A stretch of DNA of 61,752 bases, counting the filler, from Jimgerdemannia flammicorona (taxonomy: Eukaryota), in assembly GCA_003990765.1 (NCBI GenBank). It is 2 parts of 2 records of this genome, joined end to end, with 100 filler letters (N's around TTAATTAATTAA, not from the genome) between each part and the next. Parts side by side here need not be neighbours in the genome. Positions count along the whole stretch, not along the records: positions 1 to 30,836 come from RBNJ01000422.1; 1 more part is not named here. One strand, written 5' to 3'. Made by a program: the position numbers and the translations under genes. The notes under the pieces were generated by a model that searched no databases, had not been told where the DNA came from, and worked only from the letters and a program-made list of their open reading frames with translations. Positions 6,175 through 30,936 of the stretch are shown piece after piece (positions within the stretch are counted from its first letter, which is position 1; each line of letters starts with the position of its first letter).

Positions 6175-6595
6175 GAGGATTGGATTGGAGGATTCGGTTG
6201 AAGGATTCAGATGAGGATTCAGATTGAAGGATTCAAATTGGAGGATTTGAATTAGAGGATTCCAATTGGAGGATTCAAATTGGAGAATTCGAATTAAGTG
6301 ATTCAGATTGAATGATTCAGATTGAGTGATTCAAATTGAGTGATTCGGATTAGAGTGGTTTGGATGGGTGATTCGGATGGGTGATTCGGATGGGGTGATT
6401 TGGATGGGGCGATTCAGATTGAGTGATTTGGATTGAGTGATTTGGATTAGAGTGGTTCAGATGGGTGATTTGGATGGGGTGATTCAGATGGGGCAATTTG
6501 GATTAAATCCAAGTTGATTCGGATAGCTTCGGATTTGAGATTTGAATCAAACCATCATGTAATGAATTGAATCTGGATTTGATTCGAATTGACTC
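6175..6595. repeat. Right subterminal repeat array of the hAT element
   Basis: Tandem GGATTC(A/G)(A/G)ATTG / GGTGATTCGGATG units next to the right TIR. Confidence 0.85.
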
Positions 6596-6608
6596 ATTCG
6601 GAGCACTA

Positions 6609-6900
6609 CTCTTTGCTTTGAACTATTTCAATCTGAGGTTTATTCACTTAAAGATACTGGGTTATTTATACAAGTTTGCTGACTATGAGATGGTTACTGG
6701 ATTATGTGGCTAAGTTATGAGTCATTTAATACTTTGTGAAATATTTTGCCAGTTGTGAAATGCTATACTAAATCAAGAAGCTCAATCTTGCACTTTGCAA
6801 AATATTTCGCAAATGGCAGAATCGAGAACTGCTAACTATGTGGCTATACTACTTTGGAACTAGGTGTGATCAAGTATCTGTTCCCTATTTCCTTCTTCCA
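6609..6900. mobile_element. LTR fragment related to the element C LTR family
   Basis: ctttgctttgaactatttcaatctgaggtttattcact...atttatacaagtt resembles 44150-44215 and 59520-59585. Confidence 0.5.
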
Positions 6901-6949
6901 AATCTGGCTATACCATTATACTATATAAGAATCTGACAGATTATTAAAC

Positions 6950-9600
6950 TGTAAGTATATTGTTATAAGTCTTTTAAATAATAAATCAAGACAAGATAAC
7001 AACAATGATATTAATAAAGATTATAAAAAAAAAAATATTCTATAGAGTATATATATAGGCAAACTAAAGATAAGTATATAAGACTAATAAATACTTCTAC
7101 TATAATAAGCCTAGATATCATATACAAGATTATAACTTTAAAAAGAAGAATAAGAGTAATCAATAAGAACAATATAGATAAATAAATATTATAAATACTA
7201 ATAACAATAAAGATAGTAGAGATCTGTTCTTTATAGAAGTAATAACCTATCTATATAGAAGGAGATATGTATAAAAGAAATTTTAGAAAATACTTTTATA
7301 CTGATAAAAAATATTTCAGATAAAACTATATTTAGTATTAGTACTAGTATTAATATATATAAGCTATATCTAATAGTATTAATAAATAATAAAGAAGTCT
7401 GACTTATGAATTCTGATATAATACAATATATAATAATATACTATAAGTAATTCTCTATATATAAGTAGTTTAAGTATCTTATATTTATCAAATTAAGTAA
7501 TAATAATATTATCTATACTTAAGACAAAGGTAATATTAGTTGATAAACCCTCAAGCATCTTTGTAGATATACTATATATTCTAGATATAGGTAAGAATCT
7601 CTTCTCAATAGACTAGATGATGACTTGAAGAGATAAAAGAGTAAATATATATATAACTAGTGTGATGATAATTAATCTGAAAAATAATAAGAAGTTAATA
7701 TATATAATAAAAAGAAGGAATCTATATATAATTAATGATATACTAAATAGTATATTATTAATATATTTTGCAATAGTAACTGATACCTAATATATAGTAT
7801 GAATACTTAGGACACATTAGTAAGATATACTTAGAACAGATAATAAAGAGTAGTTTGATAAGAAAATTATTAGACTATTTATCTCTGAACTTCTTTTATA
7901 ATAATTATATAGCAAATAAGACTTTTTAGTAACCTTTTTATAAATAGACAAAGTGTATGAATAGTATTCTCAACTTTATATATATAGATATCTACAACTA
8001 TATATATATATTAATATATTCTAAAAAGAGATATTTTATTAACTTTATTGATAATTATACTTGTAAGACTTATATATACTTTTTTAGAGCAAAATGTGAG
8101 ATATTTGAGAAGTTTAAAGAGTTTAAGACAAGTATAGAGAATGTGACTAGATATCAAATATAGATACTATACTCAGATAATAGTATAGAGTATATGAATA
8201 AGATTTTAAATACTTTTTAAAGAAGTATGAGATATAGTATCATATGATAATACTTTATACTCTCTAGCAGAATGGTATGATAGAGTGTTTCAACTAAATA
8301 ATAATAGAGATAGTATATACTACATATACTCAATGTGGTTAGCTTACTATACTTATTTTGGAATAAATATATATATATAGTAGTATATCTATAATTATTA
8401 AATTTTTTGATCTCTAAGTAAGAGATATAGAATTCTATAGAAATAGTGATGAAATTAGTAATTAATAATCTAGAAATAATAACCTTACTCTTGAAAAATT
8501 ATAGAGTAGATCTAAGTCTGATATTTTATATAAAAATATTTAGAAGTAAGACTTACATCCTAGATAAGAGTAGTAATAGAGATAAATTAGAGTCTAAAAT
8601 AGATAAGTATATATTCCTTAAATATAATAGAGTAATATATAGACTATAAAATCTATAGAAATGATATATAGTTATTTCTTATAATATTTAATTTAAAGAA
8701 AAGACTGAAGAGTAGAAAATTTATATAGGAATTCTTATATCTAGTTTAATAATGGGTTTGCTAGTATTATTTATACTAAAGATAAGTATAATACTCTACA
8801 CCTAATCTAATAGTCAAGATTCTGATAGTATAACTCATACTTATATATATCTATAAGATTCTCTGAATGAAGAATTATAGAAATTATAGATGAGAACAAT
8901 AATAAAGAAGAGGATATCTCTCCAAAGAGTAAAAAAAAGTACAAATCTAGAGAATAAAATGAAACTTAAGCAGATTTAGAAAGTTATTGGAATCAATTAA
9001 GATATCTCATTATAAATATTATATGAACTATATCTGTAAGTATACTTATATAACAATAACCAATAAGTTAGTAAACTATAATAAAGCTATATATTTAGAT
9101 AATAAAAAAGAGTGAAAAAATACTATATATGAGAAGTATAGTTTACTCATTAAGAATAATATCTGGAATTTAATCTTTCTCTTAGTAAATTGATAATAAT
9201 AAAATCTTACTAAGTATATAAAATCAAGTATAAAGTAATAGTAGTATAGAGTAATATAAGATCTAATTTATAGCAAAGAGATATTTATAAGATTTTAATA
9301 TAGACAATAATAAGACTTTCTCTCTAATATTTAAGCTTACTTTACTTAGAATACTTCTTATAATTATAGTTAAATATAACTATAAAATCTACTAAATAGA
9401 TATAAAGATAGTATTTCTGAATAGAGATATAGAGATCAAACTATATATCTATATAATAATAAGCAAAAAGAGCTAATATATAAACTATGTAAAGATCTCT
9501 ATAGTATTAAATAAGTAGTAAGGCTATAGAACTAAAAAATTAATAAATATCTTATAGAAGATAATAAATTTAAGTATTATAAAACAGATATATATATACT
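6950..9600 (+). mobile_element. Ty1/Copia pol relic, heavily decayed by transitions
   Basis: Order is protease, integrase, RT. Motifs: LMNSD (DSG), GKNLFS, LGH, KRYFINFIDNYTCKTYIYFF..K.EIFEKFKEF, YSDNSIEY, QNG..E, and IDIKIVFLNRDI (= MDVKTAFLNGDI). Confidence 0.85.
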
Positions 9601-10525
9601 TAGTATATATTCTTAGAAATAATATAGTTAAGTTACTGGACAATAGCTAACTTAAATTCATGAAGATATAGTACTCAGTGAGAGAGTAGAAGAGGGGTTT
9701 GACCTATATAGTCTAAGTTTTCTTTTAATAAAAATTCATAGAGAGAATATTTCTATTATATATATATATATATAAAGTAATAATCAATAAATAAATAAAA
9801 TAAATAATATTAAAAGAAATACATATTAAGTTAGAAATAATTAAGAAATAAAAGAACAAGAGAAATAGCTTTTATAAATATATATTTAACTATATTTAAA
9901 ATATGTAAGAGAAAATTAAATTATATATTATAATAGATATTAAAATATAATAATAAATTATTTAAGTATTTATAAAGATTTTTTATTTTATTTTTAAATT
10001 CTTAAATAAACTTTTAATATAATATAAAAATAATAATTAATATCTAAATGCTTAGTTTTTTTATTTTAAAAAAAAATAATAAAAAGAAAATAATTTAATA
10101 AATATATTTAAATTTAAAATATAAATAAAATTTCAGAAAAAGTATATTAAAATAAATTGATCATAGTTTCTAGATATATATATCATTTAAAGAATATGCA
10201 ACTTGAATAATAATTGCCCTTTGTTTTTTACAATCAAATAGACATATGTAGGATATGTGGATTTCCCTAAAGCTCGGTAGGCCACATGACGTGCCGCGCC
10301 ACATGTTGTTTTAACTCGATGTGGACTTTTCCGGTTTGAGCACAAACAGATATACTGCGGCGGAGTCATCGGCACAGTAGTTTTTGCTTATGCTGTATCA
10401 CAACTAAAACAATGTCACCATTTTTTTTGAGGTGAGGCGACCACCAAACCCCAAATACGTACACCGAGACATGTTTTTCTCTCGTTCGTTTTCGAATTAC
10501 TTTGTGATAACTCAAACCCCTCCCC

Positions 10526-12679
10526 ATGGATCCACCAGAGCTCTCCGTTCAGCAGCTATCGCTTTCACAACAACCCTCTCATCAAACCTCCACCGAGAGT
10601 ACACCCAGCTCGTCCGAAACCCCTTTCAACTCCCTCAAACGCATCACCCTTTCCGAACTCAGTCAGGGCACTGTCCAACATGGCTGCGTCCTCGTCTGCC
10701 GCACTATCGGCACAGCCACGACCAGTGTTGCCGTCAATGTGGAGATTGAGGACCCGATCGTGGACGAGGGACCACCTGCTGCACAGGAGACGAAAGTCGC
10801 GAGGGCCCAGCTGTCGCTCTACAACTTTGCAAGCGTCCTCTCTGATGGAGCTGACGTGATGCCTCCCGGGATCCGCCTTTTCATCAGGGAACCAAACTAC
10901 GAGATTGACGCGTCGAACGGCCTCCCGATGCTTCGGAGCGATTCGCCGGACGATGTGATCCTGGTGCCGAACGAGCAGGTGGACGGACCGTTGTTGGCCG
11001 GATTGCGGTGGTCCGACGCGGTGTCAATAACATATGGCAAGCCGCAAATCAAAAACGCCGCCGTCCTGCAACGGAGAGGCAACGAACAATTCGTCGCCAA
11101 GGACTATGCATCAGCTATCGAAAGCTATACTCAAGCCTTGGAAGTGGAGCCGAACGACGTCGTACTGCTATCCAACCGAGCTCAGGCATATCTGAATCTC
11201 CAGCAGTTCTGGCACGCGCTGCAGGATGCCGAGGCGGCTGTCAAGATCGATGGCGCGAATACGAAGGCGTTGTTTCGTCACGCTAAGGCGCTATATGGCA
11301 TGCGATTGTACAAAGAGGCGTCGAATAGCTTGCAAAAGCTGAGTACACCGACTCCAGAGACGCGAGAATTAACTCGACGCACGCAACAGCGGCTCGAAGA
11401 ACAAGAGCATGGTCGGTACGACGTCTTTGGCATTTTGAAAGATGCCCAGTCGATGCGGATGCCCTACTTGGACAATGCCAATTACGTCGGGCCCGTGCGC
11501 ATCACCGAGATCCCCGGGAAAGGCCGTGGAATGGTGGCGACGAAGGAAATCGCGGAAGGAACATTGCTCATGTGCTCCAAGGCCTATTCAATAATTTACG
11601 AGGGCGAGCTGGCCGAAATGAATTGGTCCGACTCGCTGCCACCCCCCATCATCATCAAGGTCGTTGAGAAATTGCAGGCAGAGCCGTGGACGGCCGCCGA
11701 ACTCTACAACCTTTACGCCGGCCCCACCATGGCACCCATAGCTGTCGATGTCACAAACACAGCAGAGGAAATTCAAATCGATTTTTTACGCATCAACAAT
11801 ATTGTTTGCGAAAACTGCTTTAGGGTCGACGGCGATCCCTGGCCGCAGCTTTCTTCCCAGCCAACAACACTGCAGGCAAAAAATCGTACCTCCGCCGCCG
11901 CTGCGTTCGATGAGGAAGTCGGCAAGGGTTCTGGGCTCTGGGTCCTCCCCTCATACCTCAACCATTCCTGCCTCGCCAACGCAAGCTACCTCAATATCGG
12001 CGACCTCATGTTCATTCGTGCGATTCGCGGCATCAAGGAGGGCGAGGAGATCTCCGTGGCGTACGTACCAGCCTTGGATACTTTTGCAGAGCGCACGAAA
12101 AAGCTCCAACGACGCAACTTCGATTGCATGTGCCAGCTCTGCGAGTTTGGGCGGGCACAACCAGAGGCGGCGCGTCGCCGCAAGGAGCTGCTCGACGAGT
12201 TCCACGTGATACAGCCGGCTATTCGAAAAGGCGAACTGTCCATGTTGGCGCCCCTGACCAACATCATTGACAAGATTCGCAAGACGTACGCAGTCGCTGA
12301 CAAGACGGCATCCACCGGCCCGCGCAAGAAGGGAAAAAAGAAGGTTGTCGCAGTCGATGGCGAGCTTCAGCCTCATCAGCTCCATCTCGAGCTTTTCCGG
12401 CCGCTATCCGCCTACTCCCACATGAAGGCTTGCCGTGGGGACTTCAGCAAGGCAGCCGAGGCGCTCCTCGAGGCGTTCGACACGCTACCGCGCATCGCCG
12501 GCATTGCGCTCGCCCGCGCCGACGTCGCCATACAGATCGGAAAGATGTACTCGATGCAGCGGAAGATGGATGAGGCGAGGCGGTGGCTCAAGGTGGCGAA
12601 GAAGGAGTTTGAGTTGATTTATGGTGAAAATCATGGGATTTGGCAGGAATATGTCGGTGATTTCACGTCCAATATGTAA
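10526..12679 (+). CDS. TPR + SET domain protein (SMYD-like lysine methyltransferase), intronless, 717 aa
   Basis: TPRs (RGNEQFVAKDYASAIESYTQAL; LLSNRAQAYL; KALFRHAKAL), SET motifs GKGRGMVATKEI, LNHSC and EEISVAY, post-SET FDCMCQLC, and a C-terminal TPR-like helical region. Confidence 0.92.
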   Translation: MDPPELSVQQLSLSQQPSHQTSTESTPSSSETPFNSLKRITLSELSQGTVQHGCVLVCRTIGTATTSVAVNVEIEDPIVDEGPPAAQETKVARAQLSLYNFASVLSDGADVMPPGIRLFIREPNYEIDASNGLPMLRSDSPDDVILVPNEQVDGPLLAGLRWSDAVSITYGKPQIKNAAVLQRRGNEQFVAKDYASAIESYTQALEVEPNDVVLLSNRAQAYLNLQQFWHALQDAEAAVKIDGANTKALFRHAKALYGMRLYKEASNSLQKLSTPTPETRELTRRTQQRLEEQEHGRYDVFGILKDAQSMRMPYLDNANYVGPVRITEIPGKGRGMVATKEIAEGTLLMCSKAYSIIYEGELAEMNWSDSLPPPIIIKVVEKLQAEPWTAAELYNLYAGPTMAPIAVDVTNTAEEIQIDFLRINNIVCENCFRVDGDPWPQLSSQPTTLQAKNRTSAAAAFDEEVGKGSGLWVLPSYLNHSCLANASYLNIGDLMFIRAIRGIKEGEEISVAYVPALDTFAERTKKLQRRNFDCMCQLCEFGRAQPEAARRRKELLDEFHVIQPAIRKGELSMLAPLTNIIDKIRKTYAVADKTASTGPRKKGKKKVVAVDGELQPHQLHLELFRPLSAYSHMKACRGDFSKAAEALLEAFDTLPRIAGIALARADVAIQIGKMYSMQRKMDEARRWLKVAKKEFELIYGENHGIWQEYVGDFTSNM

Positions 12680-15762: not shown

Positions 15763-17424
15763 CTAAATTTTCCTAGATTTGGACGTCTTGGAGCTGGTGC
15801 CAATTGGCCCCAACAACCTCTCACCAATTGCCAGAGCCCGTTTGTGCAGCAGCTCCGCCTTGTCGTGCCGGCCTTGCCTGCTGTAGAGATCGGTCAGACC
15901 TTTGAGAGATGACGCCGGGTCGCGGTGCCCTGGTCCAAACACCTTCTCGCGGATCGCCAGCGCCCGTTCGTAAAGCAGCTCTACCTCCTCGTACTTGCCC
16001 TGGCTGTTGTAGAGGGCTGCCAAATTGTTTAAAGACGACGCCGTGTCGGGGTGCTCTGGCCCCAACACCTTTTCGCGGGTTGCCAACGCCTATTGGTGGA
16101 GCGACTCCGCCTGATTGTCCAAAGTTGAAGCTGTGCTCGGGAGCTCCAGTCCCAACGCCTTCTTGCGGATCATCAGTGCCCGTTCGTACAGCGGCTTTCC
16201 CTCGTCGTACTTGCCTTGGGGTTCGTAAAGCCAAGCCAGATTGTTAAGACACATTGCTGTGTTCGGGTGCTCTGGTCCCAACACCTTCTCGTTGATCGCG
16301 AGCGCCCATTGGTACAGCAGCTCCGCCTCATCGTATTTTCCTCTGCTATTGTAGATCCCGGCCAGATTGTATAGGGATAACGCCGTGGCGTGATGCTCTG
16401 ATCCGAACACCTTTTCATTAATTGTCAGTGCTCGTTTGCATAATTCCTCCACCTCGTCATACTTGTCCCGGTGTCCGTAGAGCAGAGCTAGATTGTTCAG
16501 AGTTGTTGCTGTGTTCGGGTGCTCTGGCCCCAACAACTTCTCTTCGATTGCCAGCGCCTGTTTGTACAGCGGCTCTCCCTCGTCGTACTTGCTTTGAGCT
16601 CCGTAAGCCCAGCCAAGATAAATTGTGGTATTCGGGTGCTCTGGCCCCAACAACTTCTCTTCGATTGCCAGCGCCTGTTTGAACAGCGGCTCTCCCTCGT
16701 CGTACTTGCCTTGAGCTCCGTAAGCCCAGCCAAGATAAATTGTGGTATTCGGGTGCTCTGGCCCCAACACCTTCTTCTCGTTGATTGCCAGCGCCCGTTT
16801 GAACATTGGCTCAGCTTTGTCGTAGTTGCCCTGTCTTTGGTAGAGCCCAGCCTGATTGTTCAGAGTTGTTGCTGTGTCTGGGTGCTCTGGTCCTAACACC
16901 TTCATGTAGATCGCCAGTGCCCGTTGGAACAGCATCTCTGCCTTGTCATACTTGTCTTGGCTTTGCTAGAGACAAGCCAAAAATATCGCTGTGTCTGGGT
17001 GCTCTGGTCCTAAAACCTCTTCGTGGATTACCAGAGCCCGTGGTACAGCGGCTCCGCCTCGTCGTACTTGCTCTGTCTTTCGTAGAATATAGCCAAATTG
17101 TTTAGAGTTTCTGCTGTGTCCAGGTTCCCTGTTTTATGTGTAGCTTCTGGACACAGCCACCCGCGCAAGTCCTTTGGCGTGGTGAATAGTACCATTATTC
17201 ATCAAATACCGAACTGTTCATCCAAGCAAACGCAAGAGAAGATCTTGGAACTCTACAGCCATTTTATCCTGATCTTTGAGTTGCGCAACAATATGTCGGA
17301 TGTGAGGAAGATATCCCTCGCTTATCTTTCGGGTCTGAGAAACATGATACTCATCAGAGACTACTTTCATGCTTAGTGTAGCAATGTTGTACTGTATCTG
17401 CTGCAGATACTCATCGTTGTCCAT
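15763..17424 (-). pseudogene. TPR-repeat protein (kinesin-light-chain-type 42-aa TPRs, as in fungal NLR-like proteins), disrupted and 5'-truncated
   Basis: About ten LGPEHPDTATTLNNLA..Y..QGKYDEAE.LY.RAL repeats. In-frame TAG at 16090-16092, further stops and frameshifts near 16970-17130, and the upstream part runs into AT-rich repeat DNA. Confidence 0.85.
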
Positions 17425-17738
17425 TGTACCATAAATAACAATTTGAAGTTATCTTTTGATAGATTCTCTTTATAAAGGTTGTCTCAGCTACTTGGTCTTG
17501 AATAGTATCTGCATAGTCTGTAAAAACTATTTGGTATCAGATTTATATATAGAAAGTATTTGGATTCTTTTTCATTTCTTAGAAAATTATGTTAAGTTGA
17601 TTCTTTAAAACTTATTTGATTTTATCAGTATAGTAGATATTTTACAGCCAAGTTTTCTATATCTACAAGATTGTAGTATTATTATTTTCAATATAATTTA
17701 TAACTATAAGTATAGTTCTTACTGAGCCTCAGAGGTAT

Positions 17739-19321
17739 TGTCATGTAGTGGTCACTGAGTTTTTCAAATACACCAGTTTCTCTTCAAGGTGTATCTCTTA
17801 GACTAACTCAAGTTTGTTATAAGCAAGTTCTTATTGGAGTGCCTTCCCAAGGTCTTATAGTCCTCAAACTTCTTATCTTTAACTATCTTGTTATCTCTTA
17901 GATTGCTTGCAAGAAAGTATGTATATTGTACTGAGAAGACTGACTTTATTTCAGAGGAAATAAGAGGGGTATTTATACAAAATATAATTCAATGGTTGCT
18001 AAGATATAAAGCTAAATATAAATTCCAATAACTAAAACTACTAAGTTCCAGGGTCAGTACTGATAGTTGTATAGGTTCAGGATGCTGGTATAATTCAGTA
18101 TCACATCAGAATACCGGTGCTGGTATTATTTAGTATTACATCAAAATACCAGTACTGGAACAATTCTGCATCACCTCAGAATGCCAGTGCTAGCATTATC
18201 CAGTGTAACAAGGGACTTAGAGCAGAAAGTTCAGGACTATTGGGGCTTCATTCTCATCATCAGAGGTCAGGATATCTTCAAAGGAGATGAGATCTATGAA
18301 TTTATCATATAGGTCACACATTTCATATACTTTGCATACTTCATCGCATATTTTGTATATGTCAAAGTTACATGGAATGATGTCATCACCAATGATGTCA
18401 TCACATTCAGCAGTAGGGAAATTGAGAACAAGGAGATCTGGAGCTCTCCAGTCTATGAGGTTCTCTTCCACAAAATAGGGGACAAATATGGGGTCTTGGG
18501 GAGGTCTAATCTGGATGCTTGGGCCTTGGAATACTGAGATCAATCCTTGTAGAAATTGGTCTGAGTTGTCCTGGAGGATTGGATGCCAGAAGTCTTCTAC
18601 TTCATCACTGTTGAGGGTGATAGTGGACTGGTTCTCTGTAGCCACCCTGGCTTCTAGTGCATTGATACAGCAGGATGACAGATCTCTGAAATCTGAGACT
18701 CTAACATACTCCAAGTTGGGGATCAACTATGGTGCATGTCTGAAGATCTGATGGATCTTCTTAGCTATTCTTGTTTCATATATATCTATAGGAGTGACAT
18801 CTTATAGCTCTTGAGTACTGGTCTGTGGGAACTCCCGGCAGAGGAGGTTTCCTATTTTGTACTCCTGTCACATTTGGAGGTATTCAGTGGCAATGGTGAT
18901 TCTTGTTTCCATTTCATGGTGGTAGAGAATATAATGATAAGGGTCACCAGTACCCAGGTTGACACTAGGAGTCCTTCTTGAGTGGGTCCTCATAGCTCTT
19001 TTGATGTCTTGGAATATCCTTTCTTCAACTGAGGTACCTTGGTAATTCCTTGACCTTGAGGTTTGGTGGGCAGTAGGCATTTTGTTTATAGTAAGTCTTT
19101 GAGCTATTTTGGGATTAGTGGGTCTTGTTGGTTACTACTACTGCAGTTTCTTGATCCTTCTTTTATATTTCTCAAGATACTTATATTGTGGTCACAATGA
19201 CTCACAGTTGGTCATCATTGCTCATCTCATATGCCGTATAATCTTTTGTGCTCCAATCTGGTGGCTTGTAAGGAAAGACTGTCTCCTGTACTGATGTTAT
19301 CATTCTGGGGTCACTGTTACA
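17739..19321 (-). repeat. 3' LTR of element A
   Basis: TG...CA termini; direct repeat of 25020-26601. Confidence 0.95.
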
Positions 19322-19395
19322 TCTTCCTCCTAAATAAGAATCTTTCTGAGCATCCTTATTCATTAGTCCAGTCCTGAAAAATTTGCTGATCCCAT
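18217..19395 (-). pseudogene. Accessory ORF of element A (~390 codons), starting upstream of the PPT and running into the 3' LTR
   Basis: ATG 19395, ORF 18868..19080 and ORF 18217..18726 share one frame. The interrupting stops are all TAA/TAG/TGA reachable by single transitions, and the other LTR has TGG at the 18868 stop. Confidence 0.65.
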
Positions 19396-19699
19396 AACCT
19401 CTGAAAAGGGGTCAAAAAGTGGTATTTATAGGCTGGCATCTTCTCTTTATATTTTGGTGTAATAGTGAAGGGTCACTCCCTTCATATAGAGCAAGGGCCT
19501 GATTCTGATCTTGATCAATCAGTTGATAGTTTGAACTCCTCTGACTTTGAAAGTCTTACAGATGAATAGTTGTCAGTACTGTATCCCTTAGAGAATGGTC
19601 CAGACAGATAGCCTACTGGTTATGAGACATGCTGTTATGATTCATGAACTAGTACCTCACAGGCAGTCATCACATTTTGCTTCTCTTGTATAAGTTCAT

Positions 19700-22600
19700 G
19701 GTACTTCTTGAGTCTGTTCCTATGTACCATGGTAGGCAGTATGGTCTCTGAGATTTTTCTAAGCCAGAAGGTGGTTCTTTTGATATCTTGCACATAGAAG
19801 GGTTCTTCTCATTTGGGCTCCAGTTTTCATGACCATAAGGCTTCTACTATATTTTGATACAGTAGAACCTTTTCTCTGATTCAGATGGGTTCTAGGGTCT
19901 TATGATTCTTTTCCACATTCTTCTTTGTCAGCACTTGTAACTTGGTGATATAATCTTCAGCCTTCTTCCTGATTTGGTATAGTCTCCAGATTTCTGCATC
20001 AATCTGTCTCCAAGTTAGGTCTATATTTGTGACTGAGATTCCATCAGAATCTTCTTCTCTGAAGAGCAACTCTCTTGGGGTAAAGTGTGTGCTCTGTAAC
20101 TGTATGTCTTGTAGAACAGAGAGGGTAGTTGGGAGATAGTTATCCCAATTCTCATATATCTCTGAGATTTTCACTAAGATGTTCTTAAGGGTCTTATTGG
20201 TTCTCTCTGTCTGTCCATTTCCTTGAGGGTGGTACACAGTGGTCTTGATGTGCTGGATCTTATATTTCTGATACATTATCTCATGGAATCCATTGACAAA
20301 TTCTGTGCCATAGTCTGTTGTGATTTGCTTCAGTATCTTGTAGTGACATATGATTTCTCAGTATAGAAAGTCAGCTATAGAGAGAGCATTGGTCTCTTGT
20401 AATACTCCTGCCTCTATCCATTTAGTGAAGAGATCTACAATAACTATAATATAGTAGTTTCCTGATAGTGTTACTGGTAGTGGCCCAATGATATCTATTG
20501 CAATGTAGTGAAAGAGGATAGGCTCAATTCTTGATGACCTGGGTGCCTGGTCTTGCTGATCTTGTTTCTGTTTTTGGTACTTGTCATACCCTTTGATAAA
20601 TTGGCATGGTCCTCTTCCATCTTGGGCCACTATATGGTTCTTCTTGCTTTGTTGTATGTGTTGATTCCTCCTAAGTATCCTTGCTCATATACTTTATTCA
20701 TTACTTGATACTTCTTGTATTTGGGTATTACTAGCTTTCCTCCTTTTCTGAGAGTAGTGTTATCTAGTTCAAACTGTTTCCAAGTCCGGTTGATGATGGT
20801 GATTGTCCAGGATTTGAGGTGGTTGGGCATCTTCTACTGCCCAAGGTAGCTGATTAATCAATAGTATAGCTTCTTATTCATATTAAATAGTCTTGATGGG
20901 AGTGTTTTGGGGCATCCTTGAGAGTGCATCAGCATTGGTGTTGGTCTTTTCTGAGTAGTGCTTGACAGTACAGTCATACTCTTGCAGCCTGTAGATCTAT
21001 CTAGCATATATTCCTTTGGGGTTCAGAGTGTGGAATAGCCAGACAAGAGCAGAATGGTCTGTTTGAATGGTGAAGTATTTCTCAGCTAGGTAGTAGTGGA
21101 ACTTGTCTACTGCCCAAACTACTGCTAAGCATTCAAGCTTGCATGACTTGTAGTTCTGTTCTGCTCCATGGGTACCTTGGCTTGCATAGGAGATGACATA
21201 TTCATGTCCATCTTTCTTCTGAGCTAGGACTGCTCCAAGTCCTATAGCACTCGCATCTGTCTGCAGGATGAATTCTAGGTTCCAGTCTGGTCTTCTGAGG
21301 ATAGGTGCTTGGGTCAACCTAGTCTTGAGTTCATTGAAGGTTTTTTGGTACTCCTTAGTCCATTCGAATTGGGTTTCCTTCTTCAGTAGCTTGTAGATAG
21401 GTGCTGCAATATTGGAATATCTTTTGATGAATCTTCTGTAGTAGCTGGCCAGTCTAAGGAAGGCATGGACTTCTGTGGTTATTCTGGGTCTTGGGTAGGC
21501 TGCAACAGCCTTGATCTTCATGGAGTCTGTGTGGATTCCAGTCTGGTTGATGAGGTGTCCTAGATAGGTGATTTCTTGAGTTACAAACTTGTATTTCTTG
21601 GGCTTGATATAGAGGCCATGCTTCTTGAGCTTCTTGAGGGCTAGCTGTATGTGATTGATATGTTCCCATACAGTATTGCTGAAGATGATCACATCATCAA
21701 TATAGACAAAGAGACATTTTCCAATCTTGTTGCTGAAGACTCTGTTCATCATTTACTGGAAACTTGCTGGGGCATTGCACATTCCAAATAACATTCATAG
21801 GTAGATATAGGTGGTATCAGGTGTGATAAAGACTGATTTCTCACTGGTATCTTGAGTGAGACCAATCTGATAGAAGCCTGAGAACAGATCCAAGATGGTG
21901 TAGTATTTGGCTTCACTTCTGAGAGTGGTAAGGATTTCTTGAATATTTGGCAAGGGCTGCCTATCCTTCTTGGTGATGGCATTGAGCTTCCTGTAGTCAA
22001 TGTAGAGTCTTAGTATGAACTCTCCAGGTTTGCTTCCTTTCTTTGGGGCAAGGACAATGGGTAAAGTCCAGGGGCTGATAGCTTGCTTGATGATTTCAAC
22101 TTCTTCCATTTCCTTGAGTTCTGCTCACAGCCACTCTCTGTAGGCAGGTGGTATTGGTCTGGCTTTCTGATAGATAGGCTTGGTATCACCAGTGTCAACT
22201 TCGTGATAGTACTTGGGTTCTTAATTGTAGATATCCCTAAAGTCTGTAGTAAGTACTCCTTCATTCTGGTGCAGGATCTTGAGATGTTGTTCCTCCAGGG
22301 GAAAGTTTTCTCCAATGGTATATGTGTGCTTGTTCTGGTCTTTGTCTTTCTTGTGCTCAAGTTCAGTAATCTTGGTAGCAGCATAGGCTCCTCTTCCAGT
22401 AGATCCAAAGCCTTGTTCTCCTCTCTTCATCTTGATGAGTTCGATGGCTTCTATGATCTTGGGCTTCTTGACTTCGTGGATCAGCATCTGGCCAATCCTG
22501 TCATGCTTCTTGACTTCAAATAGGGTAGTGGGTTGTGATTTCTGACTATAAGGAAGATCTCACTGGTGTAATCAGGGTCAATTACTCCTCCTTCAACTGA

Positions 22601-24990
22601 GATTTTGCTTTTGGCCAGACTGCTCCTGGTCTTGATAATTCCAGTATGGTTCTCTGGTAACTTGACTCCAATTCTAGTACCAAGTAGGGTGGTGGTCTGT
22701 GGTTCAAGGGTAGTATCTTGAATGCTGGCAAGGTCCATTTCTATGGCTCCTTTAGTCTTATATTCTGGGATCTTGGCTTTGGGGTGAAACTTCTTGACCT
22801 TGAGGGTGATGTCTGATTCTTGTTCCTCTTCATTATTACTGTCAGCCTGAAGTTCTAGGAGCTGGTCATCTTCTTCAGCTTTCCTTTTTGCTTCAGTGGC
22901 TTCTTGTTCATATTTCTGTTGGCAGATTTTCCTGACTTCACTGATACAGAACCAGCAGTCATTCAGGTGTTCAGAGCAGTACATCCTAGTACTATGAGGG
23001 CATCTTCCTTGAGGGGCATAGCTATCGATGATCTTATTGTACCACTGCTCATCTATGAGCTTGGGTGTCTTGTTCTTGTTCTTGTTCACTGAGTGTATAA
23101 AGACCTCTATGTTCTCTTCATCTCCTTCCTCTATGTCTGGTAGAACTCCTTTGTAGACATTGATAGAGACTCATACCTTTCTTCCTCTGTAGTTGATCTG
23201 CATATTCTAGGCATTAAGGTCAATGATGGCCTTGGTCTTATGAAGCCATTGATTGCCAATGAGGATGTCATAGTTGGTGGTGCTTGTGACAATCACATCT
23301 ACTGAGATGGTAGCTCCTTCTATCTTAATGGGGACTTCTTGAATTTTGCCAAGAGGGGTAGCTTGTATACCATCTGCTGTGACATAGACCATCTTGGTGA
23401 ACTCTTCAATGTCCCAGCCTAGGCAGTCGATTGTCTTCTTGCTCATGAGGTATCCTCCAGCACCAGTATCAATGATAGCATCAAAGATACAGTCTTCAAT
23501 CTGATATGGGGTATAGGCTGATGTCTTGCACTGATCTTTGGATTCTTCACCTGAGTTCTCAGATTCTTTCTGTATATTGTGAGCTTCTACAATCTTGTAC
23601 TCTTGATTCTTGGTGGTAGTTGCAAGTCCTACTCTCAACTGCTGTCTAAAGGCAGAGACTTTGGCTAGTTGTCCAAAAGTAGTATTGATCTTCTGTTCCT
23701 TGAGGTCCTTGTAGATATCATACTGGTGGATCTTAGTCTTGTACAGCTTCTGTTTCTTCTTGCTTTCACTTTCTCCTAAGACTGGAGTAGTATCTTTAAT
23801 GATTTGGCAGGCAGCTTCATCTAACTCCATGTCTTGATCAATCTCCTCAGGTTGGGTCTTGCTTTGAATAGTGATAGCTGGGGTCTTCTTTGGTCTTCCA
23901 ACTGGCTTGCTATTGCTCTTCTTGTCATAGGGCTTGGACCAGGTTCTGGTACCTTCAGTAGCAGGGTAGAATTCAAGCTCCTCATAGTATTCTTCATCAT
24001 CAGTATCACCAATCTCCTCAATGACTACTGTATTGATTTGTTCTCTGGTTCTGCTAGTATTGCTTAGTTGGGCTTTACATCTTGTTTTGGTCATGCAACT
24101 CTTTGCATAGTGGCCTTCTTCTCTATATCTGAAACATATGATATCGTATTCTTCTGTAGCAGCTGCAAATCTCTGCACTGGTCTCCTGTTGGCACTTCAG
24201 ACTTCTCTAACAACATCACCAAGATATGTAGTCATCTCAGCAAACTACTTGGCAAGTTCCTCAACTGGGTCAGCTTTGGCTGTCTTGGGGGTAGGTGGGG
24301 TTGGTTGTCTGTTTACAACTGTAATGGATATGATACTAGTTAGCTTTGATGGTTCTATCTTAATACCAGTTATTTTCTCCATTGAGTGTTTGGCAGGGTG
24401 TCTGGCAGTCCAATATCTCTGTGCAAAGACCACTTTCTGATCAAGGGGTCAGTGCAGCTGGGGTAGACCAGATTGCTAGGGCAATTTCAGGGTGAACTCC
24501 TTTGAGGAAGGTTGAATCCGCTATTTGTTCCTTGAGGCAGTCATCATAGCCAGCCAAGACAATCTGGTGGCAAATTCAGGTATAGAATAAGTTGGGATCT
24601 TCACTAAGTCCCTGGCAGATAGTATTTAGTTGATCCTTGAGAGCTTGCTTAATCTCTTTAGTATAGTATGTTGTTCTGAGGAAGGCCTTTATGTTGGCAA
24701 GTTTGGCTGCACCAGCATCAGCAATGGTGGCTGTATTGACCTTGTCTCTGGCAGATCCTCTGAGGCTGACTGGTAGAAGGGCCAATTGTGCATCCACACC
24801 AAGGGCTCATATGGTGGTGAATTGTTCAAAGTCTTCAATGAAGGTCAGGATTGACTCTTCAGTAGTATATCCATAGAATGTAGGGAGATGTATTTCTATT
24901 TTGTCTTGAATTCTTGCAGGGGTGACTCTTGTAGTCAGGGTAGTTGTTGTGGGGGTTGTTTATTTTTCAGCTTGAAAGTGAGGGATTCAT
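19700..24990 (-). pseudogene. gag-pol of element A
   Basis: ORF fragments 24576..24797 (gag), 23207..24178 (CCHC + PR), 20997..22109 (RT/RNase H) and 19881..20830 (IN). Confidence 0.92.
22390..22810 (-). pseudogene. dUTPase domain between protease and RT in element A
   Basis: KVKKFHPKAKIP..GAIEMDL, RSSLA, GGVIDPDYTSEI, RIGQML, RGEQGFGSTG (motifs 1-5, one frameshift). Confidence 0.92.
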
Positions 24991-25019
24991 CTTGAATCAC
25001 CAGCCAATGGGCACCAAGT

Positions 25020-26601
25020 TGTCACATAGTGGTCACTGAGTTTTTCAAATATTTCAGTTTCTCTTCAAGGTGTATCTCTTAGACTAACTCAAGTTTGTTA
25101 TAAGCAAGTTCTTATTGGAGTACCTTCCCAAGGTCTTATAGTTCTCAAACTTCTTATCTTTAACTATCTTGTTATCTCTTAGATTGCTTGCAAGAAAGTG
25201 TGTATATTGCACTGAGAAGACTGACTTTATTTCAAAGGAAATAAGAGAGATATTTATACAAAATATATTTCAATGGTTGCTAAGATATAAAGCTAAATAT
25301 AAATTCTAATAACTAAAACTACTAAGTTTCAGGGTTGGTACTGATGGTTGTACAGGTTCAGGATACTGGTATAATTCAGTATCATATCAGAATACTGGTG
25401 CTGGTATTATTTAGTGTTATATCAAAATACCAGTACTAGAACAATTCTGTGTCATCTCAGAATGCCAGTGCTGGCATTATCCAGTATAACAAGGGACTTA
25501 GAGCAGAAAGTTCAGGACCATGGGGGCTTCATCCTCATCATCAGAGGTCAGAATATCTTCGAAGGAGATGAGGTCTGCAAATTCATCATATAGGTTGTAT
25601 GTTTCGCATACTTTGCATGCTTCATCATGTGTTTCAGTATGTTAAGTTGCATGAGATGATGTCATTGCCGATGATGTCATCACATTCAGCAGCAGGGAAA
25701 TTGAGAACAAGGAGATCTGGAGCTCTCCAGTCTATAAGGTTCTCTTTCACAAAATAGAGGACAAATGTGGGGTCTTGGAGAGGTCTAACCTGTATGCTTG
25801 GGCCTTAGAATACTGAGATCAATCCTTGCAGGAATTGGTCTGGGTTGTTCTGGAGGATGGGGTGCCAGAAGTCTTCTACTTCATCACTGTTGAGAGTGAT
25901 AGTGGACTGGGCCTTTAGAGCCACCCTGGCTTCTAGTGCATTGATATGGTGGGATGACAGATCTCTGAAATCTGAGACTCTAACATACTCTAAGTTGGGG
26001 ATCGACCATGGTGCATGCCTGAAGATCTGATGGATCTTCTTAGCTGTCCTTATTTAGCATATATCCATGGAAGTAGTATCTTGTAGCTCTTGAGTGCTGG
26101 CCTGTGGGAACTCCTGGCAGAGAAGGTTTCCTATTTTATACTTCTGCCACATTTGGAGACATTCGGTGGTAATGGTGATCCTTGTTTCCATTTCATAGTA
26201 GTAGAGAATATAATGATAAGGGTCACCAGTACTCAGGTTGACACTAGGAGTCCTTCTTGAGTGGGTCCTCATAGCTCTTCTGATGTCTTGGAACATCCTT
26301 TCTTCAACTGAGATGCCTTAGTGGTTCCTTGACCTTGAGGTTTGGCAGGCAGCAGGCATTTCATTTGTAGTAAGTCTTTAAGCTATTTTGGGATTGGTGG
26401 GTCTTATTGGTTGCTACTATTGTAGTTCCTTGATCTTTCTTTTATATTCCTCAAGATACTCATACTGTGGTCACAATGACTTACAGTTGGTCATCATTGC
26501 ACATCTCATATGCTGTATAATCTTCTTGTGCTCCAATCTAGTGGCTTGTAAGGAAAGGCTGTCTCCTGTACTGATATCATCATTCTGGGGTCACCATTAT
26601 A
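25020..26601 (-). repeat. 5' LTR of element A (contains most of the accessory ORF)
   Basis: Direct repeat of 17739-19321; the terminal CA has mutated to TA. Confidence 0.95.
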
Positions 26602-27762
26602 GTATATAGATATATGAAGTATTTGTTATACTAAAGTGAGAGTTCTTATAGTGGTATATATATTAATCAAAAGTATTAATAAAGATAATGATTGATTTAC
26701 TAAAGATATAACAATAAAATACTATTGATCTTATATTTATCTTATTTAAATATCTTAGTTTAGTTTAAGTGATATACATATAGTTCAGATAGTAGTTTAA
26801 GTGATAGTTATTTATTATTCAGCTTAAAAGTCAGATATTTATCTTAAATTACTAGTTAATAGATATATATTAAGTTATAATTAATAGATATTTAACTTAA
26901 GAAGTATACTAGATTTCTTTATTTTCTCTTGACTTTCAGAGTTAGTAGTAATTTCTTAATCTTCTTAACTTTTCAGAATTAGTTATAGATGAACTCAAAA
27001 ATGATATCTATCTAAAGATCTCATTATTAAATTACTAAAGTGAGACTAAAATATAAAATAGTATATTTGAAGATTTTATTATCTCAAGAAGTATCATAAC
27101 TAGCTATATAATGAAGTAATACTATAGCTCTCAAGATCACCAGTGCTATATAATGAGTTATAGAAAGATAGTGATATTCTATTGAGCTACTAATAATAGA
27201 GAAATTCTTTGATAGTATTCAAAGTATAGTACAGATATGCTTATTATAAATTTCATATTTTAAGATCTACCAGAATCAGACTGAGTTTCAAGAATACTTC
27301 AAGTTGAGATAGCCACTAAATTCAAAGTCAGAAATAGAAAAAGAAGATTGAATTAGAGAGTATCAGTAATCACTATCACTAAGAGAATATATAAGTTATT
27401 TAAGAAGAATGAGCTAGTTTTAGCTTATATCTAAAGAGTAGCTCTAGGAGACTTTAGTATATTAGGAGATAATATAATAATACAAATCATATAGTATAAG
27501 GAGATTCAACTGATCAAAGCTTGAGAGTTTGTATAGAATATTTCAGAGATAAATCATCTATTTAGAAGAAAGTTGTAACAGTTGATTTGAATTAGTAATA
27601 TAAATTAGAAGAATAGATATTTGATCATAGTACCTAAATCTAATTTTCAAATATAGTATAGTCTTATAAATAGCTATTATTTCACAACTATAAAAACTTT
27701 AACAATTACTAAGATTTTGCAGATATTGAAATTCTTTTAATTATTAAAATCTTAGTAGATAT
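26602..27762. other. AT-rich degenerate repeat relic (with 17430-17738), target of the element A and hAT copy 2 insertions
   Basis: Very CpG-poor and TA-rich; continuous with 17430-17738 across the GTAT TSD; family not recognisable. Confidence 0.45.
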
Positions 27763-30700
27763 TAGTGCTCTGAATAGATGTTATATGATGGATTCAAATC
27801 AACTTAGATTGGTCTTGTGATCTGATCTGGATTGATCTGGATTGATTTGCATTGATCTATCTAGATTAAAATCTTTGGTGACATCACTCTTTCTTTTGTT
27901 CATTTTACTCTTGTTTTTTTTTTTCTGCCACACTTGGGTAACATCACCTTTTCCTTTTGTTCTCTCTCTTTTTTTGTTCTTTTCTTTGTTTTTTTTTTCT
28001 TTGTTTTTTTCTGCTACATCATGAGCAAACTAAACAGTAGCCCTTAATTCATACATTGGTCCAAGTCTACTCATTTTTCACCCTGCAATAATCATCAAAA
28101 GAGAGAGTATTCAAGGTAGAAATGCACTTACGGCTGATAATGTTAGATTCTTTCTCATATGGGCAGCACACAAGCTGCTTATCAAGAGCCAAAGAAGCAA
28201 TGGTGGTGGCAATAGCAATGGCAATGGTGATGGCAATAATAGTGATAATAGCAGTGGCAATAGTAGTAGTGATAGTGGGAATGAGGGAGAATTCTAGCAA
28301 CAACTCATGGCAGACCTCGGAATTCACAGACCTCATAGCTATATATGCAGCAGCCTTTTTGGAGCAGCTGATAGTAGATGTTGGTTGCTCACTTGGCTGT
28401 CACTTATTTACTTGTATTTATTTAAATTTCCCCAGCATGATCCAATTCACCTCATGCTTTTCTTAGAGTCCACAGCTCTATGGTGAGATCTGCTGACTTT
28501 ATTTATAACATCTGATCAAGATAAAGAAAGACTGGTGGATGTTGTAGGGTATGCCTTTGGTGGCTGAGCTATTGAGTCAATGTATTGTGTAGCAGAGGTC
28601 TCAAAAGGAACAGAAGCAAGCCTTCATGAGTAATCTTATACAACTTATGCAACTCATTGGTATGCAACTTGTCAGTATGTAGCTCACTTACTTACTTACT
28701 CACTCATACTCTTTTTCTGAAATACCCATCTCTGTGTTTTATTTAATTTCATTTTTTATGTAGTCTCCTCCTAAAAAACACCCACACCTACATACAACCC
28801 ATCTGTATATAACCTACCCACACACAACCTGTCTGCATACAACCCATCTGCATGTAATCTGTTTGCATACAATCTGTCTACATGCAACCTATCTGCACAC
28901 AACCCATCCACACATAGCCCATCTACATACTTATCTCAGTCCCTCAGATCAGGGCTTAGTTTTATTGAAAAGGAGAGTTCAAAGTTACTAGAGTTTAACC
29001 ACATCTAGTATCTGATCAAATAGAGAAATTCAAGGGCAAGATGTTTAGCATGAGCAGTATCAGTATCATCATCAAGACTTATGAGTCAACATTTGAATCA
29101 GAGCTAATCATTCTTAACCAAGGGGTCTATTGGCCAGTAAGAGAAACCAATGATAAAGAGAACTATATCATTATTAACAAATATGGAGAGGTGGTTGTGA
29201 TAGTGGTAAGGAATCTCTATAGTGATGAGCTTTGCTGCCACATCAATGAGATTTGTGAGGATTGTATCAAATACCAAATGGCAGGAAAGAGGGGGCAAAA
29301 AAAGCAAGGAGGGGGGGTTTGGACAGAAATTGGGTAACTGCAATACTGGCAAAGGGTGAGTTCTGGAGTTCCAAAATCCCCTGCACTTGTCTCCCTTTTT
29401 TTTTTACTCCTCTCCAGATAAATCACACTCTTCGCTAAAATACTCTTTTTGATACAATTCTAGGGATGTACAAGATTCTGTACCTCTATTGGAAGTTTAG
29501 AAGTATCATTGAAGAGCAAACTGCACACAAGCATGACACAGCCTGTGTGGTAATAGTGGCTATGATCTGGAGTTCTTTGAGCAGATTGGTAGAGTATATA
29601 GCAGACCAGCTTGGTGGTGATCTCAGCATAGCTGTATGTATATTCTTGGTACAATTTAGCATACCATATAAGGTGAGAAGCTCTACTTTTTTGGGGTGCT
29701 GCAGCTCAGGGGGTTTCTGTATTTCTGCCCCCCTGCATACAAAAAGGACTGACTGGTTGCTATCTGTTTTGGCAGATTTCTAAGCCAGGGCTCCTGGGAC
29801 TGGACCAAGAGCAGGCATCCACCAGCACAGCCTGGCAGTATGAGGTCCTGGGCCAAGGGTTCACCCAACTGTATGCTTGTATCACATCAGAATATATTGG
29901 GTACAATATTTCTCTGTCTACACACACAGATAACAATATCACTCTGGTAATATTTTATATCCTAGAAAGGAAGGGCCCAACCTGGAAGGATAGTGGTGGA
30001 TTCTGATATGACCTCACCTATAGTTTTGGAGTCCTGTTTGTAGGCAATATGGCCATTCTATTCTAACCACATGACTACCATGGTATCATCACCTTTAAGG
30101 AGAGCTTGAACACAATAGTTATTATACTCACAATGGATGATAGGCTCATCAAGGCCTGGGACTGGCAGGTGGAGCAGTTTTTGTAAGGGTTAGGCATTTA
30201 TTTATAAGGGTTAGGCAATCTTTCATAAGGGTTAGGCAGTCATTTTGTGTGAGTTGGGCAGTCTTATGTAGGGGGTTGGGCTGGGTGTATCTTCTGTAGC
30301 ACTAGCTTAGCTATTATGCCAGGTCCTACCAGCCCCTTGGCTCTACTCTGTAGTGCTGCCAGTACAGTGCTGCAGCACAGGACCAGGATACCTATGGGAC
30401 CTGAACTGGCAACAGGGCCTGAATCTGTAGTGGACTTTGACCACCAGAAGTATTCTCCAACTACTGGAAATGCCCTCCAACTACCAGAAGTACTCTTCAA
30501 CCACCAGAAGCACCCTCCACCCTGGACTCCTTGGTGGCTTAAGGCTGCCTCATTCTGCTGATGGAGAGCCACAAATTTTGTGTACTCCCTCCACCTGTCC
30601 TGTCTGTCTCAGACACTTGTGGCTTAGGGCTGCCCCTTACTACTAATGGAGGGCTACAAATTTTGTGCACTCCCTTTGCCAACCCCAACCCCACCAACTG

Positions 30701-30836: not shown

Positions 30837-30936
30837 NNNNNNNNNNNNNNNNNNNNNNNNNNNNNNNNNNNNNNNNNNNNTTAATTAATTAANNNNNNNN
30901 NNNNNNNNNNNNNNNNNNNNNNNNNNNNNNNNNNNN
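30837..30936. other. Artificial contig spacer N44-TTAATTAATTAA-N44
   Basis: Exactly 100 bp and symmetric, with stops in all frames; the two sides need not be adjacent in the genome. Confidence 0.95.

Follow-up and report, generated by a model that had tools for sequence, protein, structure and literature searches.

The window analysed here is a 61.7-kb stretch of fungal DNA, rich in transposons, from the Jimgerdemannia flammicorona assembly GCA_003990765.1. It holds three retrotransposons with long terminal repeats (LTRs), elements A, B and C, all on the minus strand, and each of them carries an additional open reading frame (ORF), here called ORF-A, ORF-B and ORF-C. That these three were real retrotransposon-borne extra genes, on the sense strand and placed at the 3' end or in the LTRs, is supported by the observations below. 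The explanation that we favour as a whole, with a probability of roughly 0.6, starts from 18217-19080 (-) as a copy, in an ascomycete-like fungus, of a genuine Ty3/Gypsy extra gene (an "LTR-ORF") which has been inactivated by repeat-induced point mutation (RIP). The original prediction had assigned the somewhat longer interval 18217-19395 to an accessory protein family shared by three Gypsy elements. Of that interval 18217-19080 is coding, but 19081-19395, with 11 stops in 105 codons, is not. All seven peptides quoted in the prediction are present on the minus strand, stops standing there in place of the W, Q or R of the prediction; they lie at 18655-18876 and 25934-26155 (A), 53823-54035 and 49524-49559 (B) and 44653-44871 (C). 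Coordinates of the elements, ORFs and LTR signals are collected in Table 1.

The carrier elements and their decay

Element A has the Ty3/Gypsy pol order of protease, reverse transcriptase (RT), RNase H and integrase. The Pfam matches follow each other as gag-asp protease, dUTPase, RVT_1 and RT_RNaseH_2, with weak matches to rve, and a sequence resembling a primer-binding site (PBS), TGGTGCCCA, stands directly after the 5' LTR. Self-BLAST aligns the LTR pair (17738-19314 with 25019-26594) at 90.4% identity over 1579 positions. In element C Pfam recognises dUTPase and RVT_1, and tblastx of C against A gives 33-45% identity in the RT-to-integrase half (the bulk 42.7% over 241 aa) and 26-40% in the half from gag to dUTPase. 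Both of these autonomous elements contain a dUTPase domain between protease and RT, at 22224-23170 (-) in A (E=3e-14) and at 54572-55123 (-) in C (E=1.6e-15).

Element B has inserted into the pol of element C, where the 5-bp target-site duplication CCAAG is found on both flanks, and its LTRs are 90.0% identical over 2040 positions. Its interior matches Chromo (E=1.4e-11) and zf-CCHC (E=0.004); neither Pfam nor translation finds protease, RT or integrase there, and tblastx does not match it to the interiors of A or C. Element B is a pol-less, non-autonomous derivative and not a full Gypsy element, so that the description of all three carriers as Gypsy elements does not hold. Whether B belongs to a different Gypsy lineage rests on pol, which it has lost. 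Its chromodomain is fused after the gag CCHC, pol being deleted; the integrase C-termini of A and C, translated by read-through, give no Pfam family at E<=0.01, and RIP damage could hide a weak domain there. The three elements have in common LTR pairs which are 88-90% identical, TGTAA starts, purine tracts and a PBS of the TGG type.

The LTRs of a pair differ by 144 transitions and 10 transversions in element A, 198 and 5 in element B, and 142 and 4 in element C. Transitions thus make up 93-97% of the differences, and 63-67% of them are in CpA context. The ratio of observed to expected (o/e) CpG is 0.05 in element A compared to 1.14 in a host SET+TPR gene of the window. This is the signature of RIP.

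Open frames in the LTRs and at the 3' end

ORF-A is situated wholly within the LTR and is therefore present in both LTRs of its element. The copy in the 3' LTR is interrupted by three RIP-type stops (TGA, TAA and TAG), at which homologues have W, Q and W, and no stop is common to this copy and the one in the 5' LTR; ORF-A was consequently open when the element inserted. At the two stops of ORF-C the homologues have Q and Q. Since the decay is of RIP type and the homologues carry these residues, the reverting of transition stops in the original prediction was sound.

The openness of the frames was compared with 2000 base shuffles per ORF of the same composition. For ORF-A, with three stops in 287 codons, 16.1 +/- 3.7 stops are expected and none of the 2000 shuffles was as low. 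ORF-B has 6 stops in 365 codons where 19.5 are expected (1/2000 as low), and ORF-C has 2 in 166 codons where 9.2 are expected (8/2000). The other five frames of the three ORFs contain 7-42 stops.

ORF-A and ORF-B are found inside LTRs and ORF-C between integrase and the 3' LTR, as had been predicted. Database homologues of ORF-A begin at the Met of 19080, and the true start of ORF-B is likely to be Met36 at 54203. Both ORFs are parted from pol by the polypurine tract (PPT) and approximately 150-240 nt of LTR. The start of ORF-C was placed too far downstream and in another frame by the prediction; it is the ATG at 45039-45041, which overlaps the pol stop as ATGA at 45038-45041 (-), and the frame differs from that of pol. 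A relic of another ORF-C copy is found at the window start, where a DNA repeat (165-311 with 44425-44571) covers it.

Homologues and selection

Intact database relatives, at 28-80% identity, were confirmed for all three ORFs: five proteins among 230 candidates for ORF-A (60-75% identity), one among 490 for ORF-B (P0009, 60% identity over the C-terminal 250 residues) and three among 57 for ORF-C (67-77% identity), the latter with a Met start in 3/3. An exhaustive HMMER search of 1.84 billion representatives with the ORF-A profile gave six proteins at E<=0.001, including P0014-P0016 which are 28-47% identical. One of the six, P0017, is a repetitive protein and was judged to be spurious, leaving five. 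The ten homologues that were looked up (P0004-P0006, P0009-P0012, P0014-P0016) are without exception unnamed metagenome proteins, from contigs of 900-4848 bp, and belong to no cellular family. The resemblance to repetitive proteins from Glomeromycotina that the original prediction mentioned is not supported by these homologues, nor by the RIP-type decay or by the host SET+TPR gene at 10511-12676 (+), whose nearest ESM Atlas clusters are from Ascomycota (feature scores 0.98).

A search of metagenome contigs gave 52 pattern matches and one confirmed locus, L001 (1535 bp). It contains an intact ORF of 291 codons, 43% identical to ORF-A, on a contig which is too short to place the ORF relative to an LTR. 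In viral contigs the A profile had 13 pattern matches and the C profile 251, none of which was confirmed. The intact ORF on L001 is flanked on its two sides by a 33-nt direct repeat (L001:170-202 and L001:1481-1513, 82% identical at a distance of 1311 bp).

ORF-A and L001 can be compared over 248 codons, in which the differences are distributed 115/79/154 on codon positions 1/2/3. In frame, the Nei-Gojobori ratio of nonsynonymous to synonymous differences (pN/pS) comes to 0.51, pS having reached saturation at 0.75; the two shifted frames give 0.87 and 1.25. Because of this codon-position pattern and the in-frame pN/pS we conclude that the ORF-A frame has been under purifying selection. The two LTR copies of ORF-A, in comparison, differ at 79 sites, which fall 29/20/30 on codon positions 1/2/3 and of which 70 are transitions; this divergence is neutral RIP decay after insertion, and dN/dS between the two copies is uninformative since the differences arose in that way. 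The frame conservation asked for by the prediction is found in independent database copies of A, B and C, and the selection signature in family A.

Table 1. Positions of the elements, the additional ORFs and the LTR signals, counted along the window
Feature	Position	Strand	Remarks
Element A 3' LTR	17738-19322	-	1585 bp; begins TGTAACAG, directly after purine tract AGGAGGAAGA
Element A interior	19323-25018	-	gag with decayed CCHC, protease, dUTPase, RT, RNase H, integrase (Pfam, translation)
Element A 5' LTR	25019-26602	-	holds second ORF-A copy
ORF-A, 3' LTR copy	18217-19080	-	287 codons + stop; LTR positions 243-1106 of 1585
ORF-A, 5' LTR copy	25501-26359	-	three other stops, one frameshift
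ORF-A TATA box TATAAAA	19161-19167	-	86 nt upstream of ATG; same word and distance in 5' LTR copy
A LTR tandem repeat	18083-18191		35 bp, 3.1 copies; between ORF-A stop and core promoter
A LTR core promoter word TATAAATACCCC	17966-17977	-	LTR position 1346
A LTR AATAAA	17945-17950	-	15 nt after TATAAATACCCC; LTR position 1373
Element B 3' LTR	47947-49984	-	holds second ORF-B copy
Element B interior	49985-52421	-	2.4 kb; gag-like frame, CCHC knuckle running directly into chromodomain, one frame
Element B 5' LTR	52422-54460	-	2039 bp
ORF-B, 5' LTR copy	53106-54308	-	400 codons through 6 stops; LTR positions 153/258-1352
ORF-B, 3' LTR copy	48634-49835	-	one frameshift near 49165-49176
Element C 3' LTR	43259-44485	-	self-BLAST, junctions
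Element C 5' LTR	58572-59821	-	self-BLAST, junctions
ORF-C	44524-45041	-	~171 codons; one frameshift near 44950-45000, two TAG stops; between integrase and 3' LTR
C LTR repeats	44261-44345	-	18/36 bp, preceding core promoter
C LTR core promoter TATAAATTACCCC	44193-44205	-	LTR position 281
C LTR 12-mer GTGAATAAACCT	44171-44182	-	exact match common to B and C LTRs; marks their poly(A) region
ORF-C relic	264-311	-	last 16 codons of another copy; tblastn with P0010 87.5% over 16 aa, E=1.7e-4; HMM iE 3.3e-4

LTR anatomy and possible expression

The LTR sequences of the three elements had been described as unrelated. No nucleotide or tblastx similarity is in fact found between them, but they have TGTAA termini in common and also the word TATAAAT(N)ACCCC of the core promoter, matched 4 times compared to 0.03 expected. 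The word is found at 17966 in A, at 44193 in C and at 48430 and 52905 in B, and in each LTR an AATAAA then follows; in the B LTR the core TATA is at LTR position 1545. Because the core promoter word (followed in A by AATAAA) is located downstream of ORF-A and ORF-B, these two are in U3. ORF-C is outside the LTR, just before the PPT, and in all three elements the gene is thus upstream of the LTR promoter. The 35-bp repeat of the A LTR resembles an array of enhancers. The 12-mer GTGAATAAACCT recurs exactly at 6636-6647 (-), in an AT-rich and heavily RIPped block, and may be the relic of a further LTR.

ORF-A has a TATA box of its own in both LTRs (Table 1). In ORF-B a TATATATAC box is found 79 nt upstream of Met36, again in both LTRs. 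On L001 the word TATAAAA precedes the start codon by 80 nt, and L001 shares with A the conserved leader ...AAAGACTTAC.A.AAACAAA.ATGCCT. The genes of A and B could therefore have a TATA promoter of their own, 77-86 nt before the ATG, and use the poly(A) signal of the LTR, a model suggested by these motifs for which we would put the chances as even. Each LTR, solo LTRs included, would then be a self-contained transcription unit. For ORF-C another route would be needed. Its ATG overlaps the pol stop, which leaves a subgenomic RNA or termination-reinitiation at the ATGA as candidates; such a stop/start overlap is used for termination-reinitiation in some viruses.

Properties of the proteins and possible function

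The proteins have a helical N-domain and an acidic C-terminal tail rich in aromatic residues; in the ORF-A product the N-domain has approximately 110-130 residues and contains the motif Y-x-I-G-x-x-L and after it A-x-K/R-h-H/Y-x-h-F/Y (h being hydrophobic). The tails have 17-32 D+E compared to 1-10 K+R, with many aromatics, and the isoelectric points (pI) are 4.1-4.9. In family A the tail contains repeated DLI-x-F-[ES] words and has a conserved (V/I)LNF end. The highest Kyte-Doolittle mean over 19 residues is 0.64-1.14 in eight proteins from the three families, which excludes a membrane segment, and no env-type Pfam family is found on ORFs or homologues. In both respects, acidic tails and no membrane segment, the original prediction is confirmed, and ORF-A encodes a soluble acidic protein of no known family.

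Pfam gave nothing at or above the curated cut-off for the ORFs and their homologues; at E<=10 the only matches in eight proteins were LST1 (0.062) and Peptidase_C21 (0.2), on the C homologues P0010 and P0011, which we judged to be chance. Sequence profiles of the PDB gave 0 matches for A and 0 for B. The C profile had 18 tissue-factor rows there with E from 0.044 to 1.1, also judged to be chance. In the ESM Atlas, P0005 (the only protein of the ORF families that was queried) had a best feature score of 0.83, below the 0.9 used as lead level, an Atlas model with a predicted local distance difference test (pLDDT) of 0.35 and a structural template-modelling (TM) score of at most 0.33.

Models made with AlphaFold2 (AF2) are all-helical. 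In the C-family model, from a merged alignment, residues 31-110 have a pLDDT of 69-83. Foldseek against the PDB found nothing at E<=0.001 with either the A-family or the C-family model, and the VIA wide search with the C-family model gave 0 chains at Z>=5, the best being Z 4.9. A likeness to helix-turn-helix (HTH) or Myb/SANT domains, suggested by the spacing of the motifs, stays a lead: Pfam shows no HTH family at E<=10, and the HTH proteins RamR, WhiA and DnaA domain IV reach Z 3.8-4.3, which is the noise level for helical models. The structure comparison that had been proposed as a check brought no fold match, the models being of low confidence, and the proposal of an undescribed factor agrees with Pfam, PDB sequence and fold searches, which recover no known family.

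As to function, the LTR-ORF product could be a nuclear regulator in which the N-domain binds DNA or a partner and the acidic, aromatic tail activates, so that transcription from its own LTR is raised. It would then be a transactivator of its own LTR, working like Tas of foamy viruses. We rank this first because the architecture resembles that of a regulator with an acidic activation domain; it takes the largest single share among the functions considered, and is still a guess. Among the functions named in the original prediction (transactivator, silencing suppressor or DNA mimic), the helical N-domain and the acidic, aromatic tail point only loosely, and to a regulator. RNA export or packaging and counter-defence would come close behind.

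These other mechanisms, in the same gene family, deserve to be taken seriously as a possible alternative. The protein might serve the export or packaging of genomic RNA (gRNA), as do CERV of Cer1 and Rev; it might counteract a defence such as RIP, quelling, meiotic silencing by unpaired DNA (MSUD) or heterochromatin; or it might direct Gag traffic by means of the DLIxF and LNF motifs of the tail. The N-terminus of family A is rich in arginine (MPAARQTSRSRN..RTRTRR), a point in favour, but this basic stretch is not conserved in B or C. The DLI-x-F-[ES] words do recur in the acidic tails, but the DLIxF and LNF motifs are too short for a statistical test, and neither Pfam nor the fold searches found an RNA-binding or known adaptor domain. 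Also in favour is that the host genome clearly attacks these elements by RIP. A Ty3/Gypsy accessory protein that is needed for gRNA export has been reported (PMC10309623).

One family or three

The original prediction of a single family fails by the pairwise comparison it had itself proposed: BLASTP between A and B gives E=0.033 (22% over 137 residues), which is not significant, and between A and C or B and C it finds nothing in the register of the motifs. Comparison of profiles lends the prediction weak support. With shallow profiles hhalign gave E-values of 0.41 (A-B), 0.45 (A-C) and 0.0078 (B-C); when distant relatives had been added to A, the values became 0.0025 for A-B and 0.034 for A-C, with B-C at 0.0078. 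All three alignments have one and the same register, in which Y-x-I-G-x-x-L and A-x-K/R-h-H/Y-x-h-F/Y each pair with their counterpart. Column shuffles reached the observed score in 0/93 (A-B), 1/93 (B-C) and 3/93 (A-C) cases; in the last comparison one of the values (134.6) may be a parsing error. MAFFT found the same register unaided in 15 sequences, with the Y, the I, the L and a later S invariant; P0007, P0008, P0009 and P0013, which are without the N-domain, were left out of this alignment.

Searches with hidden Markov models (HMMs) were run over the six-frame translation of the window, approximately 123,000 residues. The best non-self match of the A HMM was ORF-B (independent E-value, iE, 0.0029; second copy 0.37), that of the C HMM was ORF-B (iE 0.25) and that of the B HMM was ORF-A (iE 1.3). 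All these cross-family matches are on the correct strand and in the correct frame.

Taken with the alignments, these matches make it probable that ORF-B and ORF-C carry an N-domain homologous to that of ORF-A. We do not go beyond that grade because the probabilities given by hhalign are 12%, 5% and 1.5% and the profiles are very shallow, with an effective number of sequences (Neff) of 1.3-2.0. A single accessory-gene family would then have its place inside the LTR in some lineages and, across the PPT/LTR boundary, outside it in others.

The alternative is three unrelated, lineage-specific extra ORFs, each a real gene, whose motifs and acidic tails are due to convergence or to chance in A+C-rich sequence. 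The BLASTP results and the low hhalign probabilities are what this alternative predicts, as are the shuffles that reach the observed scores of B-C and A-C. It also accounts for the lack of nucleotide or tblastx similarity between the LTRs or the ORFs and for the differing lengths and C-terminal halves of the three proteins. We consider it unlikely nevertheless, as three independent comparisons choose the same register, the scores rose once the A profile was deepened, the HMM of each family ranks an ORF of another family at the top of the six-frame residues, and the ORFs occupy an equivalent position relative to pol and the LTR promoter.

Points against the explanation and remaining alternatives

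Several further points weigh against the explanation that we favour. Selection was measured on one pair only and at a saturated synonymous divergence, and the database ORFs are open by ascertainment, since gene callers report open frames only. Three of the six stops in ORF-B, at residues 55, 130 and 144, are common to both LTR copies, and the homologue P0009 covers only the part of ORF-B after residue 149; the N-domain of B may have been dead already at insertion, or RIP may have struck twice at the same CpA sites. The AF2 models are of low confidence, with a mean pLDDT of 54 in the A family and 60 in the C family, and the fold searches with both of them recovered no DNA-binding fold. Promoter, transcript and function, finally, are read only from sequence motifs.

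It is very unlikely that the ORFs are fragments of host genes transduced by the elements, in the way that retroviruses take up oncogenes, and without a role in them. Capture of genes by LTR retrotransposons is documented (PMC7264820), and Pfam recognises in the ORFs none of the known domains of retroelements. In the same source, however, captured ORFs are described as present in one or few copies. Among the 1.84 billion representatives, moreover, only the six proteins mentioned above (five without P0017) reach E<=0.001, and the ten that were looked up point to no cellular family. An ORF which has been kept down to 28-47% identity together with a TATA and a leader fits a long-lived gene of the element better than a one-off capture.

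That there is no gene at all, the frames being open by chance in a T-poor strand (24-25% T and 15-18% G in the coding strand, a low T content giving fewer stops by chance) or, for ORF-C which abuts pol, a misread C-terminal extension of integrase, is hardly credible in view of the 9-20 stops in shuffles of the same composition against 2-6 observed, the 7-42 stops in the other five frames, the codon-position pattern and pN/pS which single out the ORF-A frame, the PPT and LTR sequence which part A and B from pol, and the separate frame of ORF-C with Met starts in its homologues.

Relation to known systems

The best-known protein gene contained in an LTR is that of one mouse retrovirus, mouse mammary tumour virus (MMTV). 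Its superantigen gene, sag, lies in the U3 of the LTR, and the Sag protein of this vertebrate retrovirus is a type II membrane glycoprotein. ORF-A and ORF-B, not ORF-C, resemble sag as complete ORFs within U3 which are hence duplicated in both LTRs. The proteins here are soluble and acidic, have no hydrophobic anchor and match no Pfam family at or above its curated cut-off, so the likeness is one of position only and not of homology. Foamy viruses encode Tas (Bel1), one of the 3'-encoded retroviral transactivators, in a terminal accessory gene which is served by an internal promoter located in env. In our working model the LTR-ORF product would, like Tas, target the LTR by means of a binding domain and activate it with an acidic region; no likeness to Tas in sequence or fold was found, and the putative promoter is here in the LTR.

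In plants, LTR retrotransposons contain additional sense ORFs between pol and the 3' LTR (aORF-3S), which the accessible part of PMC7264820 describes as ENV-like. The fungal ORFs resemble them in being sense ORFs which follow pol, stand before or at the 3' LTR and are conserved across the copies of a family; this applies to A, B and C, and the position of ORF-C is exactly that of an aORF-3S. A signal peptide or transmembrane anchor, by which Env is recognised, is absent from the three ORF families, the host here is a fungus, and there is no sequence relationship to the plant ORFs. A location inside the LTR, as in ORF-A and ORF-B, is not mentioned in the accessible part of PMC7264820.

CERV, of the Caenorhabditis elegans Ty3/Gypsy element Cer1, is encoded by a spliced mRNA and takes part in the export of gRNA, according to PMC10309623. 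It is likewise a novel element-specific accessory protein without a family, and indicates that Ty3/Gypsy elements can depend on a third protein. The spliced mRNA is known for CERV, whereas the fungal ORFs are known here from sequence and are set beside CERV by description. In Botrytis cinerea the Boty-like Gypsy elements have an additional gene, brtn (Zhao et al. 2011, as cited in the accessible part of PMC8365987). The carrier is again a Gypsy element, in a filamentous ascomycete; brtn is antisense, in contrast to the sense ORFs of this window, and the comparison is by description only. Retroelements of bdelloid rotifers have captured additional ORFs which are shared between diverse elements, as described in the portion of PMC5408684 available. 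The likeness is one extra-ORF family in otherwise differing retroelements, here with and without a chromodomain; the hosts and the proteins are others.

We found no description of a sense protein gene inside the LTRs of fungal retrotransposons in the literature searched, subscription journals, Repbase and Dfam being outside that search. A survey of fungal LTR elements from 2011 does not, in its accessible part, use the terms "additional ORF", "third ORF" or "dUTPase", and uses "additional domain" for chromodomains and composite nested insertions (PMC3248453). Extra ORFs in retrotransposons are already known. What is apparently new is an orphan family of accessory genes with an unusual location in U3 and, apparently, a promoter of its own.

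In its most far-reaching form the explanation would make each LTR an autonomous gene, with TATA, an ORF of 170-370 codons and a poly(A) signal, for a trans factor that activates the element family or shields it from silencing. Solo LTRs and the pol-less element B would keep supplying this factor, the PPT/LTR boundary would have moved across the gene, and the family would be the first LTR-encoded regulatory one outside retroviruses. In this form we regard it as doubtful.

Other features of the window

AT-rich blocks are found at approximately 6000-10000, 26000-28000 and 40000-43000, with GC down to 19-30%; in the block 7000-10000 the CpG o/e is 0.0 and the TpA o/e 1.31. At 15766-16985 (-) there is a host-like gene made up of 42-residue TPR_10/TPR_12 units (Pfam E=4e-80), which show in the DNA as 126-bp tandem repeats typical for fungal repeat proteins of the NOD-like receptor (NLR) type. 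A 2.4-kb repeat is present in two copies, 515-2932 and 27851-30410, which are 82-84% identical and 27.4 kb apart. The ORFs tested in it gave no Pfam family except a weak extensin-like row. The two copies may represent the LTRs of one very large element, or else remnants of a different repeat family. At 30837-30880 and 30893-30936 there are runs of 44 N each, which look like gaps in the assembly or masked sequence within the second repeat copy.

Implications

LTRs are normally treated as non-coding control regions, and proteins encoded in them go unseen because repeat masking removes the LTRs before genes are called. If the explanation given here is true, solo LTRs could encode a protein, a trans-acting factor could be carried by elements that are not autonomous, and fungal Gypsy elements could have an accessory regulation like that of retroviruses. 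The finding gives a handle on how such elements persist in genomes which destroy repeats by RIP. Even if the function should be trivial or lost, the ORFs form a new orphan family which pipelines for the annotation of transposable elements ought to recognise.

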